Origin: Escherichia coli
GTDB taxonomy: Bacteria > Pseudomonadota > Gammaproteobacteria > Enterobacterales > Enterobacteriaceae
Length of the DNA: 64,000 bases
Reading direction: 5' to 3' (one strand)
Assembly (NCBI RefSeq): GCF_003018255.1
Contig: NZ_CP027440.1
Shown piece by piece: positions 12,966 to 56,415 of the stretch. The first letter of the stretch is position 1. Every line of letters begins with the position of its first letter. Below the pieces are notes generated by a model that ran no database searches, was not told where the DNA came from, and saw only the letters and a list, made by a program, of their open reading frames with translations. The translations under genes and the position numbers were made by a program.

Positions 12966-13085
12966 ATGATGGTTACAGTTGTCAGCAATTATTGTCAATT
13001 ATCTCAAACCCAACTCTGTCAGACATTTGCAGAAAAATTTACTGTGACCGAGGAATTACTGCAGTCTTTAAAAAAACACTTATAA
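12966..13085 (+). CDS. hypothetical 39-aa sORF ([39 protein letters not shown]), possibly a remnant of a gene lost at this locus
   Basis: AAAGGAG Shine-Dalgarno immediately upstream of tandem ATG ATG; below the ORF-track size cut-off. Confidence 0.25.
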
Positions 13086-24947: not shown

Positions 24948-26285
24948 TTACCAGCGCTCTTTCAGCAGGTTCGGCTGAATCCCATTAATCAAATGGGTAT
25001 TGCTGAACGGCTGTTTGATTCCCGCCTCAAATTCTTCGCGGAAATATTTGATGGCGCTCTGTAACGGCTCCACTGCACCAGGTGCGTGGGCACAGAAAGT
25101 TTTACCCGGGCCTAAGAATCGACACAGTTGCTCAAGTGTTTCGATATCGCCCGGCTGACCTTCGCCACGCTCCAGCGCACGCAGAATTTTCACGCTCCAC
25201 GGCAGACCGTCGCGGCACGGCGTACACCAGCCACAGGACTCACGGGCGAAAAACTCTTCCAGGTTACGCACCAGCGACACCATGTTGATCTCATGGTCAA
25301 CCGCCATCGCCAGCGCCGTACCCATACGGCTTCCCGCTTTACCGATACTTTCGAATTCCATCGGCAGATCAAGGTGCGCTTCGGTCAGGAAGTCGGTGCC
25401 AGCGCCGCCTGGCTGCCAGGCTTTGAATTTCAGACCGTCACGCATACCACCGGCGTAATCTTCGAGGATCTCGCGTGCGGTGGTGCCGAATGGCAGTTCC
25501 CACAGGCCCGGATTTTTCACCCGACCGGAGAAGCCCATCAGCTTGGTGCCAGCATCTTTACTTTTCGAGATGTTCTGATACCACTCCACGCCGTTAGCGA
25601 GGATCGCCGGAACGTTACACAGGGTTTCGACGTTATTGACACAGGTCGGTTTGCCCCATGCACCGGAGGTTGCCGGGAATGGAGGCTTCGAGCGAGGGTT
25701 AGCGCGACGCCCTTCCAGGGAGTTGATTAACGCTGTTTCTTCACCGCAGATGTAGCGCCCAGCCCCGGTATGGACGAACAATTCGAAGTCGAAACCTGTT
25801 CCCATAATGTTTTTGCCAAGCAGACCCACTTCGGTGGCTTCGGCAATGGCACGGCGCAGATTCACTGCCGCTTCGATATACTCGCCACGCAGGAAGATGT
25901 AGCCACGGTACGCTTTCAGCGCAAACGCGGAGATGAGCATACCTTCCACCAGCAGGTGCGGCAGTTGTTCCATCAGCAGGCGGTCTTTATAGGTGCCCGG
26001 CTCCATTTCATCGGCGTTACACAGCAGGTAACGGATGTTCATGGATTCGTCTTTCGGCATCAGGCTCCATTTCAGGCCGGTAGAAAAGCCCGCGCCGCCG
26101 CGCCCTTTCAGACCAGCGTCTTTTACCTGATTAACGATTTCGTCCGGAGACAGCCCGGTCAGCGCCTTACGCGCGCCTTCGTAACCGTTTTTGCTGCGAT
26201 ATTCGTCCAGCCACACTGGCTGTTTGTCATCGCGCAGACGCCAGGTCAGCGGATGCGTTTCGGGAGTACGGATAATGTTTTTCAT
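24948..26285 (-). CDS. nuoF: NADH-quinone oxidoreductase subunit F (FMN/NADH-binding)
   Basis: 445-aa ORF; overlaps nuoE stop. Confidence 0.95.
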
Positions 26286-26782
26286 TTATACCGCTCCAGC
26301 AGTTCAGGGATCGCTTCCGGGGTCAGATGCGCGTGAGTGTCCTCATCGATCATCATGTTTGGCCCTTTGTCGCAGTTCCCCAGGCAGCAAGTTGGCAGCA
26401 GCGTAAAGCGGCCATCAAATGTCGTTTGCCCTGGTTTGATGTTCAGCTTTTTCTCCAGCGCCGCCTGAATACCCTGGTAACCGTTGATGTGACAGACCAC
26501 GCTGTCGCAATAACGGATCACATGGCGACCAACCGGCTGGCGGAAGATCTGGCTATAGAACGTTGCCACGCCTTCGACGTCGCTCGCCGGAATACCCAGC
26601 ACATCGGCGATCGCGTGGATCGCGCCATCCGGCACCCAGCCACGCTGCTTCTGAACGATTTTCAGCGCTTCAATGGACGCCGCACGCGGGTCTTCGTAGT
26701 GGTGCATCTCGTGCTCAATCGCTTCACGCTCTGCCGCACTCAGCTCAAAAGCCTCGGTTTGTGGTTGTTGATTCTCGTGCAT
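26282..26782 (-). CDS. nuoE: NADH-quinone oxidoreductase subunit E
   Basis: 166-aa thioredoxin-like [2Fe-2S] ORF. Confidence 0.95.
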
Positions 26783-26784
26783 AA

Positions 26785-28587
26785 TTAGCGGTCCACATCT
26801 GACATAACAAAATCGATACTGCCCAGATAAACAATCAGGTCAGACACCAGGCTGCCGCGGATCGCCGCCGGAATTTGCTGCAAATGCGCATAACTCGGCG
26901 TACGGATACGGGTGCGATAACTCATGGTGCTACCGTCGCTGGTCAGGTAGTAACTGTTGATCCCCTTGGTCGCCTCAATCATCTGGAAAGATTCATTGGC
27001 TGGCATCACCGGACCCCACGACACTTGCAGGAAGTGGGTGATCAGGGTTTCGATATGTTGCAGCGTGCGCTCTTTCGGCGGCGGCGTGGTCAGCGGATGA
27101 TCCGCTTTGAACGGGCCTTCCGGCATGTTGTTGAGGCACTGCTCAAGAATGCGCAGACTCTGGCGCAGCTCTTCCACTTTCAGCATTACGCGGGTGTAGC
27201 AGTCAGAAACACCACCACCCACCGGGATTTCAAAGTCGAAGTTTTCATAGCCAGAATAAGGACGCGCCTTACGCACGTCGAAGTCGATCCCGGTGGCGCG
27301 CAGGCCCGCGCCAGTGGTGCCCCACTCCAGCGCCTCTTTCGCGCCATAGGCGGCAACGCCCTGGGAACGACCTTTCAGAATGGTGTTTTGCAGCGCCGCT
27401 TTCTCGTAAGACGCCAGACGTTTCGGCATCCAGTCGAGGAACTCACGCAGCAGGCGATCCCAGCCACGCGGCAGGTCGTGCGCTACACCGCCAATACGGA
27501 ACCACGCCGGGTGCATACGAAAACCCGTGATCGCTTCCACCAGATCGTAAATTTTCTGACGATCGGTAAAGGCGAAGAACACTGGCGTCATCGCGCCGAC
27601 GTCCTGAATAAAGGTGGAGATATACAGCAGGTGACTGTTGATGCGGAACAGTTCGGAGAGCATTACGCGAATGACGTTAACGCGATCCGGCACGGTGATC
27701 CCGGCCAGTTTCTCTACCGCCAGCACGTAAGGCATTTCGTTAACGCAGCCGCCGAGGTATTCGATACGGTCGGTATACGGAATGTAGCTGTGCCAGGACT
27801 GGCGTTCGCCCATTTTCTCCGCACCACGGTGGTGGTAGCCGATGTCTGGTACGCAGTCGACAATTTCTTCGCCATCAAGCTGCAAAACGATGCGGAAAGC
27901 CCCGTGCGCCGACGGGTGGTTCGGGCCGAGGTTGAGGAACATGAAGTCCTCGTTTTCGGTGCCGCGCTTCATCCCCCACTCTTCCGGTTTGAAGGTCAGG
28001 GCTTCCATCTCCAGGTCCTGTTTGGCTTTGGTCAGCTCAAACGGCGAGAATTCGGTAGCGCGCGCCGGATAATCTTTACGCAGCGGGTGACCTTTCCAGG
28101 TTTGCGGCATCATGATGCGGCGCAGGTTCGGGTGACCGTCGAAAGTAATGCCAAACAGATCCCAGGTTTCACGCTCATACCAGTTAGCGTTCGGGAACAG
28201 TTTGGTGAAGGTCGGTACGTGCAGGTCGTTTTCTGCCAGCGCCACCTTCAGCATGATGTCGCGGTTACGATCGATAGAAATCAGATGGTAGAAAACGGAA
28301 AAATCCGCGGCAGGTAACCCTTCGCGGTGTGTGCGCAGACGTTCGTCCATGCCGTGTAAGTCAAACAGCATGACGTAAGGTTTCGGCAGTTTCTTTAAGA
28401 AATCGCCCACTTCCAGTAATTGTTCACGCTTGATCCACACAACGGGAACCCCGGTGCGAGTCGCCTGAACAGTAAAGGCATCCGGCCCAAAACGGTTGCG
28501 CAGTTCGCCAATCACCGGATCATCAAGATGATCGCGGGTCTGCCAGGCGGGTTCTTGCGCGGTTAAGTCGGTCATATTGTTCACCAT
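26785..28587 (-). CDS. nuoC: NADH-quinone oxidoreductase fused subunit C/D
   Basis: 600-aa fused NuoC-NuoD ORF typical of Enterobacteriaceae. Confidence 0.95.
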
Positions 28588-28680
28588 TGCAAATGGTCCG
28601 TGGTGACTGTCGGCGCAGTAAGCTTCGCGAAATAGATTTAGGAATAAGCGAAGAAAAATTCCTTTGCCGACAGGCGCAAA

Positions 28681-29343
28681 TTAAATCTCGTCAGGTGTAC
28701 GCAGGTTGGTTACGGCAATGCGTTCACCGCGCTTGCGTTCGCGCTCTGATTGCATATTGGCGCGATAAACGCCCTGATCGCCAACCACCCAGGAGAGCGG
28801 ACGACGTTCTTTACCGATAGATTCCTGCAACAGCATCAGTGCCTGCATGTACGCTTCAGGACGCGGAGGGCAGCCCGGGATATACACATCAACCGGGATG
28901 AATTTATCGACGCCCTGCACAACGGAATAAATATCGTACATACCGCCGGAGTTGGCACAGGCACCCATTGAGATAACCCATTTTGGTTCCAGCATCTGGT
29001 CATACAGACGCTGAATAACCGGTGCCATTTTTGTAAAGCAGGTTCCTGCAACGACCATCAGGTCAGCCTGACGCGGCGAAGCTCGCAATACTTCTGCGCC
29101 AAAACGCGCCACGTCATGCACCGCGGTAAACGAAGTCACCATCTCAACGTAACAGCAGGAAAGACCGAAGTTATACGGCCAAATTGAGTTTTTACGACCC
29201 CAGTTAACCATGTCATTGAGCTTGCCCATAAACACGTTTTTATTAACTTCTTGCTCCAGAGGGTCGGTTACGATCTCCTGCTTTTGCAGGGGGTAACGGT
29301 CGTTCTCACCGTTGGGATCTATGCGGGTGAGCGTATAATCCAT
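28681..29343 (-). CDS. nuoB: NADH-quinone oxidoreductase subunit B
   Basis: 220-aa ORF with CCxxE...GxCxxxGG motif region. Confidence 0.95.
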
Positions 29344-29358
29344 CTTAATGCCTCGCGG

Positions 29359-29802
29359 TTAGCGTTGACGATTAGCGATACTGTTCGTTTCCGGGTTCAT
29401 ACGCTCGCGGCGTGAACGCGCGGGCGTCCAGTCCAGCGCGCCAATACGCACCAGATAAACCAGACCTGCCAGTAACACAAAAATAAAAATTGCAGCTTCC
29501 ACAAAGCCTACCCAGCCGCTTTCGCGGATAGAGGTTGACCATGCGAACAGATACAGCGCTTCAACGTCGAAGATAACGAAGAACATGGCCACCAGATAAA
29601 ACTTGGCGGACAGGCGTAAGCGGGCGGAGCCGACCGAGTCGATACCGGATTCAAACGGAACGTTTTTCGACCTTGCGCGTGCGCGACCGCCTAAAAACCA
29701 ACCGCCTACCAGCATCAGGCAACACAGGCCAATGGCAACGATAAGAAAGATAGCGAATGCCCAGTGATGAGCGATGACTTCAGTGGATGTTGACATACTC
29801 AT
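29359..29802 (-). CDS. nuoA: NADH-quinone oxidoreductase subunit A
   Basis: 147-aa membrane ORF; first gene of operon. Confidence 0.93.
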
Positions 29803-30347
29803 TGCTTACTCATCAAAAGTAGCGCCAGATTCACTGCTCTTCACGGCAGATGGACGCCACATCGATTCATGGGGAGGAATAAAAAAAACCTTACAATCAC
29901 TGTAGAAATTCTTTTATACAGCTAATTGATGTGGTCTTTTACTCCTTTCTATAACCTTTTGTCAACTTTAACAAAAGTTTCTTCACATTAGTTTACATAA
30001 TATCAACACCATTAGCATTTAATGCCCTTTCACCCCAGATCCTTGACGACTCCAGGATAATTAGATGTTGTTGAATCGTGTCCGTTGTGAAGCAATGGAA
30101 AAAATACGGGTCTATTTTGACAGGAATTTGTGTCGATTCCTCCCCCCAAAAGAGAGTATTTTCTTGATCTGTGACACGCTTTTGTCATTCCATAACAAAA
30201 ACGCAGCAACAAATTTACGTATTTTTTAACATCATTGTAGCAGGTGATTTTTTTCAGGCGATTATTTGTGCGTTCGGGACGTGAATCTCTGGTGATTGAA
30301 AAATGAACAGTTTTGTACGTTCTGCACGATACGAGGAAGGCTTTTTA

Positions 30348-30388
30348 CTAAAAAAAAGCCGCTGGGGTTTAAAACACCCCCAGCGGCT
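30348..30388 (-). terminator. rho-independent terminator of lrhA
   Basis: Stem AGCCGCTGGGG / CCCCAGCGGCT followed on the minus strand by T8. Confidence 0.75.
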
Positions 30389-30431
30389 CGTTTTTACACT
30401 ATTGTCTCAGAAATTATCTATGGTCCGTCGA

Positions 30432-31373
<942 letters not shown>

Positions 31374-32289
31374 TTATCACTTACTGGCGGCTCATACTGA
31401 GCTGGTTAATGCTGTGCACACACAAACAAGCAATTCCATTTGTAATGTGCCTCCCTGGCAGTTTCATCCGGAACCCGGACGAAAGTAAAAATGCATATGA
31501 GTTGCACTAAAAAAGCGACTCACATTGTTCCGTTATAATGCCTGAAGTAGATCACAGAATATATCTTCAGGAATCGCATATCTATTAAGTTACTCACTCT
31601 TTTGTATTTATGACATGCGCGTGTTTGTATAAATGTAAATGTGAGTCCTTGTTCCACTCTCGTGCAGCATCGCTGGTCATACGCGAACACGTACAAACAG
31701 CAATGGTGAGGCGGCATCAAGAGCAGGGATCCGTCATTTATGCGAGCATTTTACCCCAAAAACCTTTTATTTATAAGGGTCATTGCGAATTATCTGATGC
31801 AAAGTTATGTTATGTTAGGCAAAGTAATCTTCTATTATTAATAAGCACAACAAAACCTTTTTGAATATTAAATAATAATTAATTAGCATCATCCTCATAC
31901 ATTAATCCCGCTTAACAATAGTTTCACACCTTGCACCCATTACGACACCTCGGAAATCATCACGCTGTTAAACTCTCCGTAATGCGGAAATATCATCATC
32001 ACGATTCATTAGTGAATTCTTAAACGAGGCATTTTCAAACAATTATCTTACAGATAAAAAAACCACAGTCGCAATTAAGAATCAGAACAATTCACTACAT
32101 AACATTAATTACTAAGCATATACACCTCATTATTTTGCCACTATTAAGTTATTAACAGCACAATCGAGTCTTCCCCTCTGGCAAAATCTTATTCTGCAGA
32201 CCTTCAAAACGCCGTCCTGGGGGAGTACATTGTTCTAAGCTGACTTCCACGGCAGGGAGTGGCGATAACAGCAAAAAAGGTCAAGATTC

Positions 32290-34190: not shown

Positions 34191-34203
34191 GCAGCCGGAG
34201 TCT

Positions 34204-34243
34204 GCGTCGCATCAGGCAATAAGCGCCGGATGCGACATCAGGC
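34204..34243. repeat. REP element between yfbR and yfbS
   Basis: GCGTCGCATCAGGC...GCCGGATGCGAC imperfect palindrome of REP type. Confidence 0.6.
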
Positions 34244-34248
34244 TCTTG

Positions 34249-55017: not shown

Positions 55018-55506
55018 TTACGCTCTGGGCAAGAAACTTGACGAGCTTTGCAGATAATCAAAAAACCATCTGATGATAAAACTGAACTGCGGGATCAGCT
55101 GTGATTTGCTCCAGTCTTCGCTTTTCGACACCCCGGTAAAGGAGTCGAGAAAGAAGAGAATGGCGGCAACAATCAACACACCGCGCAACGCACCGAAACA
55201 GACGCCCAGCACCCGATCGGTGCCTGACAACCCCGTTTTCTCTACCAACTGGCCTATCACGAAGTTCACGATAGCACCAACGATCAGGGTAGCGATAAAC
55301 AGTACCGCGATGGCAATCCCATTTCGAACCAGTTCGTCTTCAAAGCCCGTAAACCAGACTGACAGGTAAGTGTAGTAATGACTGGCAACAAAGAAAGCAC
55401 AACCCCATGTCACCAGCGATAACGCTTCACGAACAAAGCCGCGGATCAGGCTAACCAGAGAGGAAAAAGCAATCACCGCGATTATGGCGTAATCAATCCA
55501 GACCAT
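55018..55506 (-). CDS. cvpA: colicin V production membrane protein
   Basis: 162-aa membrane ORF immediately upstream of purF. Confidence 0.92.
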   Translation of the reverse strand: MVWIDYAIIAVIAFSSLVSLIRGFVREALSLVTWGCAFFVASHYYTYLSVWFTGFEDELVRNGIAIAVLFIATLIVGAIVNFVIGQLVEKTGLSGTDRVLGVCFGALRGVLIVAAILFFLDSFTGVSKSEDWSKSQLIPQFSFIIRWFFDYLQSSSSFLPRA

Positions 55507-55563
55507 ATGTGTCCCACGATTTTACGCCCTGTCATCCTGTTCGGGGCGCATTCTAACAGAAAA

Positions 55564-55579
55564 AGAAAACGTTTGCGTA
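55564..55579 (-). promoter_or_regulatory. PurR operator (PUR box) upstream of cvpA-purF
   Basis: Minus-strand TACGCAAACGTTTTCT, near-perfect match to the 16-bp PUR box palindrome, about 60 bp upstream of cvpA ATG. Confidence 0.7.
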
Positions 55580-55671
55580 GGGATTTCCTTCCCGCGCATC
55601 AATAAAAATGGCGCTGAAAAAACATTCAACGCCATCGACTTTTTATGCCTTTGCGGCATCGGGCAATGCGT

Positions 55672-55755
55672 GTCGGATGCGGCGTGAACACCTTATCCGA
55701 CCTACGGTTCTACCCCTGTGTAGGCCTGATAAGACGCGCCAGCGTCGCATCAGGC
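55672..55755. repeat. BIME: two inverted REP copies between cvpA and dedD
   Basis: GTCGGATGCGGCGTGAACACCTTATCCGACCTAC and TGTAGGCCTGATAAGACGCGCCAGCGTCGCATCAGGC in opposite orientation. Confidence 0.7.
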
Positions 55756-55764
55756 AAGACCGTA

Positions 55765-56415
55765 TTAATTCGGCGTATAGCCCATTACCACGCCACTTAA
55801 GCCAGAAAGTTGCTTCAACTCACCCAGCGATCCTTTCAGCTTATCTTTCGAGGCATCAGGCCCAACCAGAATACGGGTAATTTTACCCTGCACTGGCGTG
55901 GATGGCGACGTATAAACCCGATAACCGGCACCGCGCAGCTTACCGACAATCTCATTCACTTTATCGGCATTTTTCAGCGCGCCCAGTTGCACAACATAGG
56001 CTTTACCCGTTGGCGCTGCTTTTTCTTCCACGACCGGCTTCGACGCAGGTGGTGCTTCAACCTTCGGTTTAGGCGACTCCACCGGTTTCGGCTTCGGTGG
56101 GGCGACCGGTGCAGGTTCCGGTTCAAACTCGGTGTTATTGACTGCAATAGTGGCCGGATCGAGCGACGGTGCTGCGGCATCACCTGCCCGCACCTCTTCC
56201 GCTGCGCCTTCCGGCGGCTGCGTCGGCAGCGCCTGGGTGGCGGCTGGCATCATATCAGGCTCATCGCGATCGCCCGCTTTCGGCACCAGCGGGATAGCCG
56301 CGAACTCATCCTGATAATGTTTTTTCTGCCCGTCCAGCAGCCCTGGAAGTACAATCACCCCCAGCGCCACCAGCACGATCGTGCCCACTAACCGATTCTG
56401 AAACTTACTTGCCAC
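55765..56415 (-). CDS. dedD: cell-division protein DedD (SPOR domain, Pro/Lys-rich linker)
   Basis: Probable GTG start giving MASKFQNRLVGT... (alternative ATG at 56433); C-terminal SPOR-like domain; overlaps folC 3' end. Confidence 0.8.
   Translation of the reverse strand: MASKFQNRLVGTIVLVALGVIVLPGLLDGQKKHYQDEFAAIPLVPKAGDRDEPDMMPAATQALPTQPPEGAAEEVRAGDAAAPSLDPATIAVNNTEFEPEPAPVAPPKPKPVESPKPKVEAPPASKPVVEEKAAPTGKAYVVQLGALKNADKVNEIVGKLRGAGYRVYTSPSTPVQGKITRILVGPDASKDKLKGSLGELKQLSGLSGVVMGYTPN

Follow-up and report, generated by a model that had tools for sequence, protein, structure and literature searches.

REP-related palindromes in three intergenic spacers of an Escherichia coli chromosomal segment: a one-unit BIME-2, a lone Y-like REP and a presumed head-to-head relic

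Introduction

Descriptions of REPs and BIMEs go back to the 1980s, reports of their copy-number polymorphism and of their targeting by IS1397 date from 1997-1999, and Escherichia coli K-12 carries 355 annotated REP elements. A REP of this species is an imperfect palindrome of 35-40 nt that follows a Y, Z1 or Z2 consensus from head to tail. The copy of the K-12 RefSeq record that we searched for annotated REP features contained none. Among the composite elements the BIME-2 class is defined by Y and Z2 units of alternating orientation with a short linker that lacks an IHF site between them, a definition that restates the Bachellier/Gilson classification, and variation of its copy number between strains has been described previously (PMC3333891). 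As DNA, BIME-2 binds gyrase (PMC2817692, PMC3333891), and both gyrase binding and cleavage of the class go back to Espeli & Boccard (1997, cited in PMC2817692). REPs are also bound and cleaved by RAYT (TnpA_REP), a single-copy enzyme (PMC3333891, PMC3479197) whose binding requires a GTAG at the hairpin foot together with a bulged hairpin (PMC3479197) and which cuts at CC/T sites (PMC3479197, PMC3333891). Insertions into E. coli REPs are made by IS1397, of the IS3 family, and IS621, of the IS110 family (PMC1525189), the first of which is known as a REP-specific insertion sequence from the work of Bachellier, Clément and colleagues (cited in PMC1525189).

At the level of RNA, transcribed REPs withstand 3'-5' exonucleases and set stable 3' ends, with Rho often terminating downstream (PMC6061677), and a 2026 preprint describes one REP that partially terminates transcription in a Rho-dependent manner and also stabilizes the upstream mRNA (bioRxiv 10.64898/2026.03.23.713779). 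The same preprint reports a higher ratio of upstream to downstream expression in tandem gene pairs with REPs and higher expression of both genes in convergent pairs with REPs, effects that were strongly context-dependent and not uniform genome-wide. Here we describe three REP-related palindromes within one segment of the E. coli chromosome and compare them, within the segment and across complete genomes, with these systems.

Three REP-related sites in the window

The window, by which we mean the whole 64-kb stretch of DNA analysed, is a piece of the E. coli chromosome that runs arn–men–nuo–ackA/pta–his–purF–dedD–folC. As annotated in strain 104 and K-12 MG1655, its gene order is arnA-T, pmrD, menE-F, elaB/A, rbn, yfbL/M, nuoN-A, lrhA, alaA, yfbR, yfbS, hxpA, yfbU/V, ackA, pta, yfcC-H, folX, rpnB, hisPMQJ, argT, ubiX, purF, cvpA, dedD, folC, accD, dedA, truA, usg, pdxB and flk. 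Spacer positions were taken from the annotations of K-12 and of strain 104, which is 99.1-99.7% identical to the window and collinear with it throughout except in the nuoL–nuoM spacer. On these annotations the palindromes that an earlier note had assigned to cvpA–dedD, nuoM–nuoL and yfbR–yfbS were correctly placed in both position and gene context, and all three are extragenic. Site 1 lies in the dedD–cvpA spacer (55507-55764; 258 bp, both genes on the minus strand), site 2 in the nuoM–nuoL spacer (17772-17934; 163 bp, both genes on the minus strand, within the nuo operon) and site 3 in the yfbR–yfbS spacer (34191-34248; 58 bp, between convergent genes).

The three sites are real, correctly located and ordinary, and their biology is already known. 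Taken together they are very probably best explained as members of the REP/PU family that would act as hairpins and on 3' ends, with site 1 a single-unit BIME-2, site 2 a lone Y-like REP and site 3 a head-to-head relic. They are unexceptional for E. coli, as had been supposed, and their identity withstood a check of whether the sequences recur elsewhere in E. coli genomes: all three do so over some 5,425 genomes at medians of 10 places per genome for the 801-bp query containing site 1 (60,184 places in all), 15 for the 44-nt element of site 2 and 7 for the 47-nt element of site 3, each a lower bound set by BLAST sensitivity. For site 1 this median identifies a dispersed repeat rather than a local palindrome.

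The description of all three as classical REP palindromes stands for site 1, where the units match their consensus at 30/32 (Y) and 38/38 (Z2) positions, and for site 2, as a REP variant with an exact tail, but not for site 3, which consists of heads only. A search by REP/BIME pattern, the check that had been proposed, divides the sites in the same way, recovering sites 1 and 2 and finding at site 3 neither the tail nor the GTAG foot. The full head-to-tail pattern has one match in the window and none in 100 shuffles, while the 14-nt tail motif occurs exactly at just three places in the 64 kb, two of them at site 1 and one at site 2. Neither the tail-motif scan nor a comparison of the window with the Y, Z1 and Z2 consensus sequences by blastn-short revealed additional REPs elsewhere, and none of the three sites in the window carries an inserted element, as the earlier note had observed.

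Beyond correct annotation the significance of the sites is small. For practical purposes the dedD–cvpA spacer is a length-variable marker that ranges from 167 to >620 bp across E. coli, and the nuoL–nuoM spacer comes in two unrelated forms. The sites also illustrate that REP-like palindromes are not always complete REPs, which is relevant to predicting the targets of TnpA_REP or IS1397.

The dedD–cvpA spacer carries a one-unit BIME-2

On its sequence, site 1 (55671-55757) is a textbook one-unit BIME-2, its Y REP joined tail to tail through a linker to an exact Z2 REP; in turn, the three blocks read TGTCGGATGCGGCGTGAACACCTTATCCGACCTAC, GGTTCTACCCCTGT and GTAGGCCTGATAAGACGCGCCAGCGTCGCATCAGGCAA on the plus strand. 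The two inverted copies reported to form a BIME at 55672..55755 are a Y unit on the plus strand and, across the linker, a Z2 unit on the minus strand. The Y-type palindromic unit (55671..55705) has exact head and tail motifs, agrees with the Y consensus at 30 of 32 positions between 55674 and 55705, and ends in the foot CTAC (55702-55705), which is GTAG on the minus strand. It is followed by a linker of the short 'S' type of BIME-2 (55706..55719) that holds no IHF site and, at only 14 nt, has no room for the IHF site of a BIME-1. The inverted Z2-type REP (55720..55757), which reads TTGCCTGATGCGACGCTGGCGCGTCTTATCAGGCCTAC on the minus strand, presents its GTAG on the plus strand at 55720-55723 and matches the Z2 consensus over its whole length. 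Both units conform to the consensus sequences published for Y and Z2 in K-12 (PMC2817692, Table 1). Assignment of site 1 to BIME-1 or RIP, which combine Y with Z1 across a long L linker bearing an IHF site, was considered and rejected, the partner here being Z2 throughout, with Z1 fitting only the shared ends, and the linker being too short.

As minus-strand RNA, which is the sense of dedD, the two units are predicted to fold independently, the Y unit alone at -17.5 kcal/mol (z -2.9), the Z2 unit at -21.4 kcal/mol (z -4.4) and the pair at -42.2 kcal/mol (z -3.7). Along that strand the dedD stop codon (55767-55765) is followed by 9 nt, the Z2 unit, the linker, the Y unit, some 35 nt, a terminator-like hairpin, a PurR-like box and cvpA, an order that places the BIME within the 3' untranslated region of folC-dedD and just upstream of the cvpA-purF control region. 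The hairpin (55597..55636, minus strand), with 12 pairs, a T tract and the tail TTTATTGATG, resembles an intrinsic terminator and is the sole such site found in 55400-55900; it follows the BIME on the dedD transcript and probably marks where the folC-dedD unit ends. The box (55565..55578; GAAAACGTTTGCGT, or ACGCAAACGTTTTC on the minus strand), which we take to resemble the PurR operator consensus, belongs to the control region of cvpA-purF, which is under PurR control, and lies outside the repeat.

Site 1 is thus like other BIME-2 elements of E. coli in its Y unit and exact, inverted Z2 unit, its short tail-to-tail linker without an IHF motif and, across strains, its tandem units of 91 bp numbering 0 to 5, although in the window it has one unit, unlike the typical multi-copy BIME-2. 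Its inverted REP pair with GTAG feet also corresponds to the form that RAYT is proposed to mobilize in REPIN/RAYT systems such as the Pseudomonas REPINs or TnpA_REP (YafM) of E. coli. Unlike those systems, no RAYT gene is present among the genes annotated for the stretch, and only polymorphism in presence/absence and copy number suggests that site 1 is mobile.

Copy number, the empty allele and IS1397 at the dedD–cvpA locus

The cvpA–dedD query finds matches in 5,425 of 5,426 complete E. coli genomes, strain 104 being 100% identical in the query region, and across the 5,426 the locus holds between 0 and 5 units at a period of exactly 91 bp. The spacer accordingly measures 258 bp in the window and in K-12, with one unit, 440 bp in EC958, with three, and 531 bp in O157:H7 and DA61218, with four; at 167 bp in RIVM_C037884 it has no REP and no unit. 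A further form, of 235 bp in ST648, retains about one unit but has seven unrelated nucleotides in place of the 30 nt that make up its linker and both GTAG/CTAC feet, a net loss of 23 bp. In a sample of 60 genomes one unit was present in 39, two in 1, three in 7, four in 8 and five in 1, the remainder comprising two with the form shortened by 23 bp, one empty and one with a split locus, proportions that are rough because the sample was evenly spaced down a ranking and not drawn at random.

With a 45-nt probe that seeds only across the empty junction, the empty allele was counted in 136 of the 5,426 genomes. Its edges form an imperfect direct repeat, CATC(G/A)GGCAA, with nine of ten positions in agreement, and because the left copy resembles a worn Z2 head we infer that this allele is probably a contraction rather than a site that was never occupied.

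A 600-nt query made of the flanks alone is contiguous in 5,416 of 5,425 genomes and split in the other 9. In JNE25-003, the one split locus of the nine that was examined, an IS1397 (IS3 family) sits in the loop of a Z2 unit within a five-unit array, with GCCA duplicated (L021:3637-5694). Comparison of the sites across strains for IS insertions, as suggested beforehand, was therefore informative, the cvpA–dedD BIME ranging from 0 to 5 units with an IS in a few genomes and sites 2 and 3 yielding no split locus. The accompanying statement that REPs are insertion hot-spots for RAYT-type, IS200-like transposases does not hold: RAYT acts on REPs, whereas it is IS1397 and IS621 that insert (PMC1525189), and IS1397 is what occurs at cvpA–dedD.

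Whether the changes in copy number are the work of the host or of TnpA_REP is finely balanced. We put at about even chances the explanation that units of 91 bp are gained and lost by replication slippage or unequal homologous recombination, with no part played by TnpA_REP. The strict period, the near-identity of the units within an array and the imperfect direct repeat at the edges of the empty allele all favour it, as does a single genome, NZ_OX030728, in which 26 bp of the site 3 hairpin are duplicated in tandem between direct repeats of CATCAGGC (L012:392-475), so that slippage-type amplification takes place in an element devoid of any GTAG foot. On the other hand, in vitro work shows TnpA_REP recombining BIME substrates and amplifying them through exactly the CC/T sites present at site 1 (PMC3333891), and the ST648-type allele has lost precisely the feet and linker where this enzyme cuts. 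By inspection against the published requirements (PMC3333891, PMC3479197), sites 1 and 2 both offer the GTAG with a bulged hairpin and the CC/T sites in TGCC/TGAT and CC/TAC, and site 3 does not.

A lone Y-like REP and an alternative spacer between nuoL and nuoM

Site 2, TGTCGGATGCACCGCGAATGCGGCTTATCCGACCTAC (17860..17896, plus strand), is a solitary REP of Y-like type whose centre is variant, and it is transcribed on the minus strand as part of the nuo operon. Its tail is an exact copy of the 14-nt motif CTTATCCGACCTAC and its foot CTAC lies at 17893-17896, while its head GTCGGATGCACC is near consensus, agreeing with GYCKGATGCGRC at 9 of 12 positions and escaping a head scan that tolerated one mismatch. 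The RNA hairpin, with a predicted energy of -25.3 kcal/mol (z -7.3), begins 38 nt past the stop codon of nuoL and forms part of a larger predicted fold. In its near-consensus head, exact tail, CTAC foot, bulged stem-loop, extragenic position and dispersed relatives site 2 is like a single REP of the Y class, but it departs from the Y consensus in its divergent central stem and loop, which are 2 nt longer (CACCGCGAATGCGG versus CGGCGTGAACGC), and from the single REPs found at operon ends in lying inside an operon, between nuoL and nuoM.

The site 2 spacer of the window matches that of K-12, and among strains with the 163-bp spacer the differences concentrate in the central stem and loop of site 2. 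Of 5,423 genomes matched, 4,699 have this 163-bp spacer with the REP and the other 724, which include O157:H7 and strain 104, an unrelated spacer of 230 bp without it; no genome shows a split locus, and thus a large insertion, at site 2. Genomes that lack the REP at nuo still yield full-length relatives of site 2 with 84% identity, one of them being the Y unit in a BIME that lies downstream of speB.

The 230-bp spacer (L010:373-602) holds a dispersed palindromic repeat of its own, of about 118 bp with the ends TCAGGC...GCCTGA, which is found at a median of 4 places per genome and also lies between pheM and pheS. An Rfam search with this repeat returned nothing; the ERIC primer sequences, taken whole, align with it poorly, but its central 21 nt agree by eye with the ERIC core at 18 of 21 positions. 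Over window positions 17932-31999, from nuoL through lrhA, identity to strain 104 is 99.14%, compared with 99.6-99.7% on either side, and the fall in identity exactly at the swapped nuoL–nuoM spacer suggests a recombination boundary.

Proposed roles as hairpins at 3' ends or as DNA sites for gyrase

By analogy with the family, the transcribed hairpins would most likely block 3'-5' exonucleases and so define and stabilize the 3' end of the upstream message, and would in addition partially attenuate the downstream message through Rho. Site 1 would then stabilize the 3' end of dedD, site 2 would favour nuoA-L over nuoM-N, and site 3 would protect both convergent messages. As DNA, a BIME-2 such as site 1 would bind gyrase and serve as substrate both for TnpA_REP and for recombination, which would account for the expansion and contraction of the 91-bp units and for the landing of IS1397 in the loop. 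Among the listed supplementary entries of one E. coli 3'-end study, no 3' end falls at the K-12 coordinates that match the three loci. The G·U wobbles that stem substitutions create between strains fall sometimes on the mRNA strand and sometimes on the opposite one, neither being consistently favoured, so that the sequences give no sign of selection on an RNA form over a DNA form.

An action mainly as DNA, in which the BIME of site 1 would bind gyrase and insulate the folC-dedD unit topologically from the cvpA-purF promoter rather than stabilize RNA, is possible though unlikely in our estimation. As a Y+Z2 BIME-2 it belongs to the class reported to be bound and cleaved by gyrase (PMC2817692, PMC3333891), it lies between two transcription units of the same direction and just upstream of a promoter region, and the separate terminator-like hairpin downstream of it would already end the dedD transcript. 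However, strong gyrase binding has been described for multi-unit BIME-2 elements, whereas the window has one unit, and the BIME is dispensable, given that 136 genomes do without it and others have up to five units or an IS.

The yfbR–yfbS hairpin as a probable relic of a BIME junction

Site 3 (34197..34246) is predicted to fold as a hairpin of about 20 bp that fills the 58-bp gap and consists of a Z2 head and a Y/Z head with 7 nt (AATAAGC) between them. Its arms, 34206-34217 and 34225-34236, are 92% complementary, the folding energy is -30.3 kcal/mol (z -4.95) on one strand and -27.4 kcal/mol (z -4.16) on the other, and the hairpin begins 6 nt past the stop codon of yfbR and 3 nt past that of yfbS. 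On the minus strand, 34219-34204 are the first 16 nt of Z2 without mismatch, including the TT that precedes the head (E=3.6e-4 within the window), and on the plus strand 34225-34236 are the 12-nt head GCCGGATGCGAC. Searches of the site for a CTTATC...CCTAC tail and for GTAG/CTAC found neither. The possibility that the flanks are eroded REP tails overlapping the stop codons was not supported by alignment against shuffles: the flanks, which reach both stop codons, match REP tails no better than shuffled sequence (left p=0.99, right p=0.03-0.35), the sole hint being ATCAGGC in the right flank, directly after the head (p about 0.03-0.1).

The order GCGTCGCATCAGGC, 7 nt, GCCGGATGCG is that of the head-to-head junctions in complete BIMEs, such as the inner junctions of the O157 dedD–cvpA array or the element at acs-yjcH, where both the sequence and the 7-nt spacing are the same. 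It is this identity of arrangement that explains why the 47-nt element recurs at a median of 7 places per genome, and the one other place examined is indeed a complete BIME junction. Unlike a complete BIME, site 3 is without both outer halves (GATAAG...GTAG and CTTATC...CTAC), and the pairing is between its two heads rather than between each head and a tail of its own. We therefore read site 3 as a REP fragment, the relic of a BIME junction in which two REP 5' halves stand head to head, and not as a classical REP; with tail and GTAG both missing, its REP ancestry rests on the 16-nt and 12-nt heads and on the geometry of the junction.

That site 3 was never a REP or BIME, being instead a bidirectional hairpin specific to the locus that protects or terminates the 3' ends of yfbR and yfbS and came to look like REP heads by convergence on a GC-rich palindrome, is improbable. 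The missing tail and feet and the failure of the flanks to align with REP tails speak for it, as do the results from other genomes, in which megablast with a 651-bp query returns one copy per genome, covered to at least 80% in a single place in all 5,425, so that no genome has a large insertion at site 3. The 47-nt element is identical in 4,944 genomes (91%), constancy that also fits this explanation and yet is statistically unremarkable, there being only about 11 variable sites in the 651 bp. Against convergence stand the exact match to the Z2 head with its preceding TT, the head on the opposite strand at the canonical head-to-head spacing, and the recurrence of the element, in the one case examined as part of a complete BIME.

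Liang, Rudd and Deutscher reportedly found in 2015 that a REP within 15 nt of the stop affects translation termination. The relic might have been exapted and kept as one hairpin that serves both convergent genes, protecting both 3' ends and perhaps damping translation termination of both, since terminating ribosomes would need to unwind it, and the dedD BIME might likewise tune DedD output by lineage, a thoroughly speculative proposal to which we attach very little weight.

Other features of the window

The 16-nt sequence GCGCCGGATGCGACAT, inside the coding sequence of nuoG (22813-22828, minus strand), matches part of site 3 exactly, which is probably a coincidence (E=5e-4, one query among several). 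A nuoG RNA motif (RF01748) is recognized by Rfam at 24903-24945 on the minus strand, scoring 50.3 bits compared with a gathering score of 33, and no other Rfam family was detected in the 64 kb.

Between nuoN and rbn, strain 104 has just yfbM, yfbL and a 111-bp remnant of an elaD pseudogene, in a region that by collinearity lies at about 13,000-14,600 of the window; K-12 has yfbK, yfbN, yfbO, yfbP and an intact elaD there as well. The dedD gene is 651 bp long in strain 104 and ST648 (window 55765-56415) and 663 bp in K-12, O157 and EC958, the 12-bp difference being in frame, within the gene and outside the spacer.
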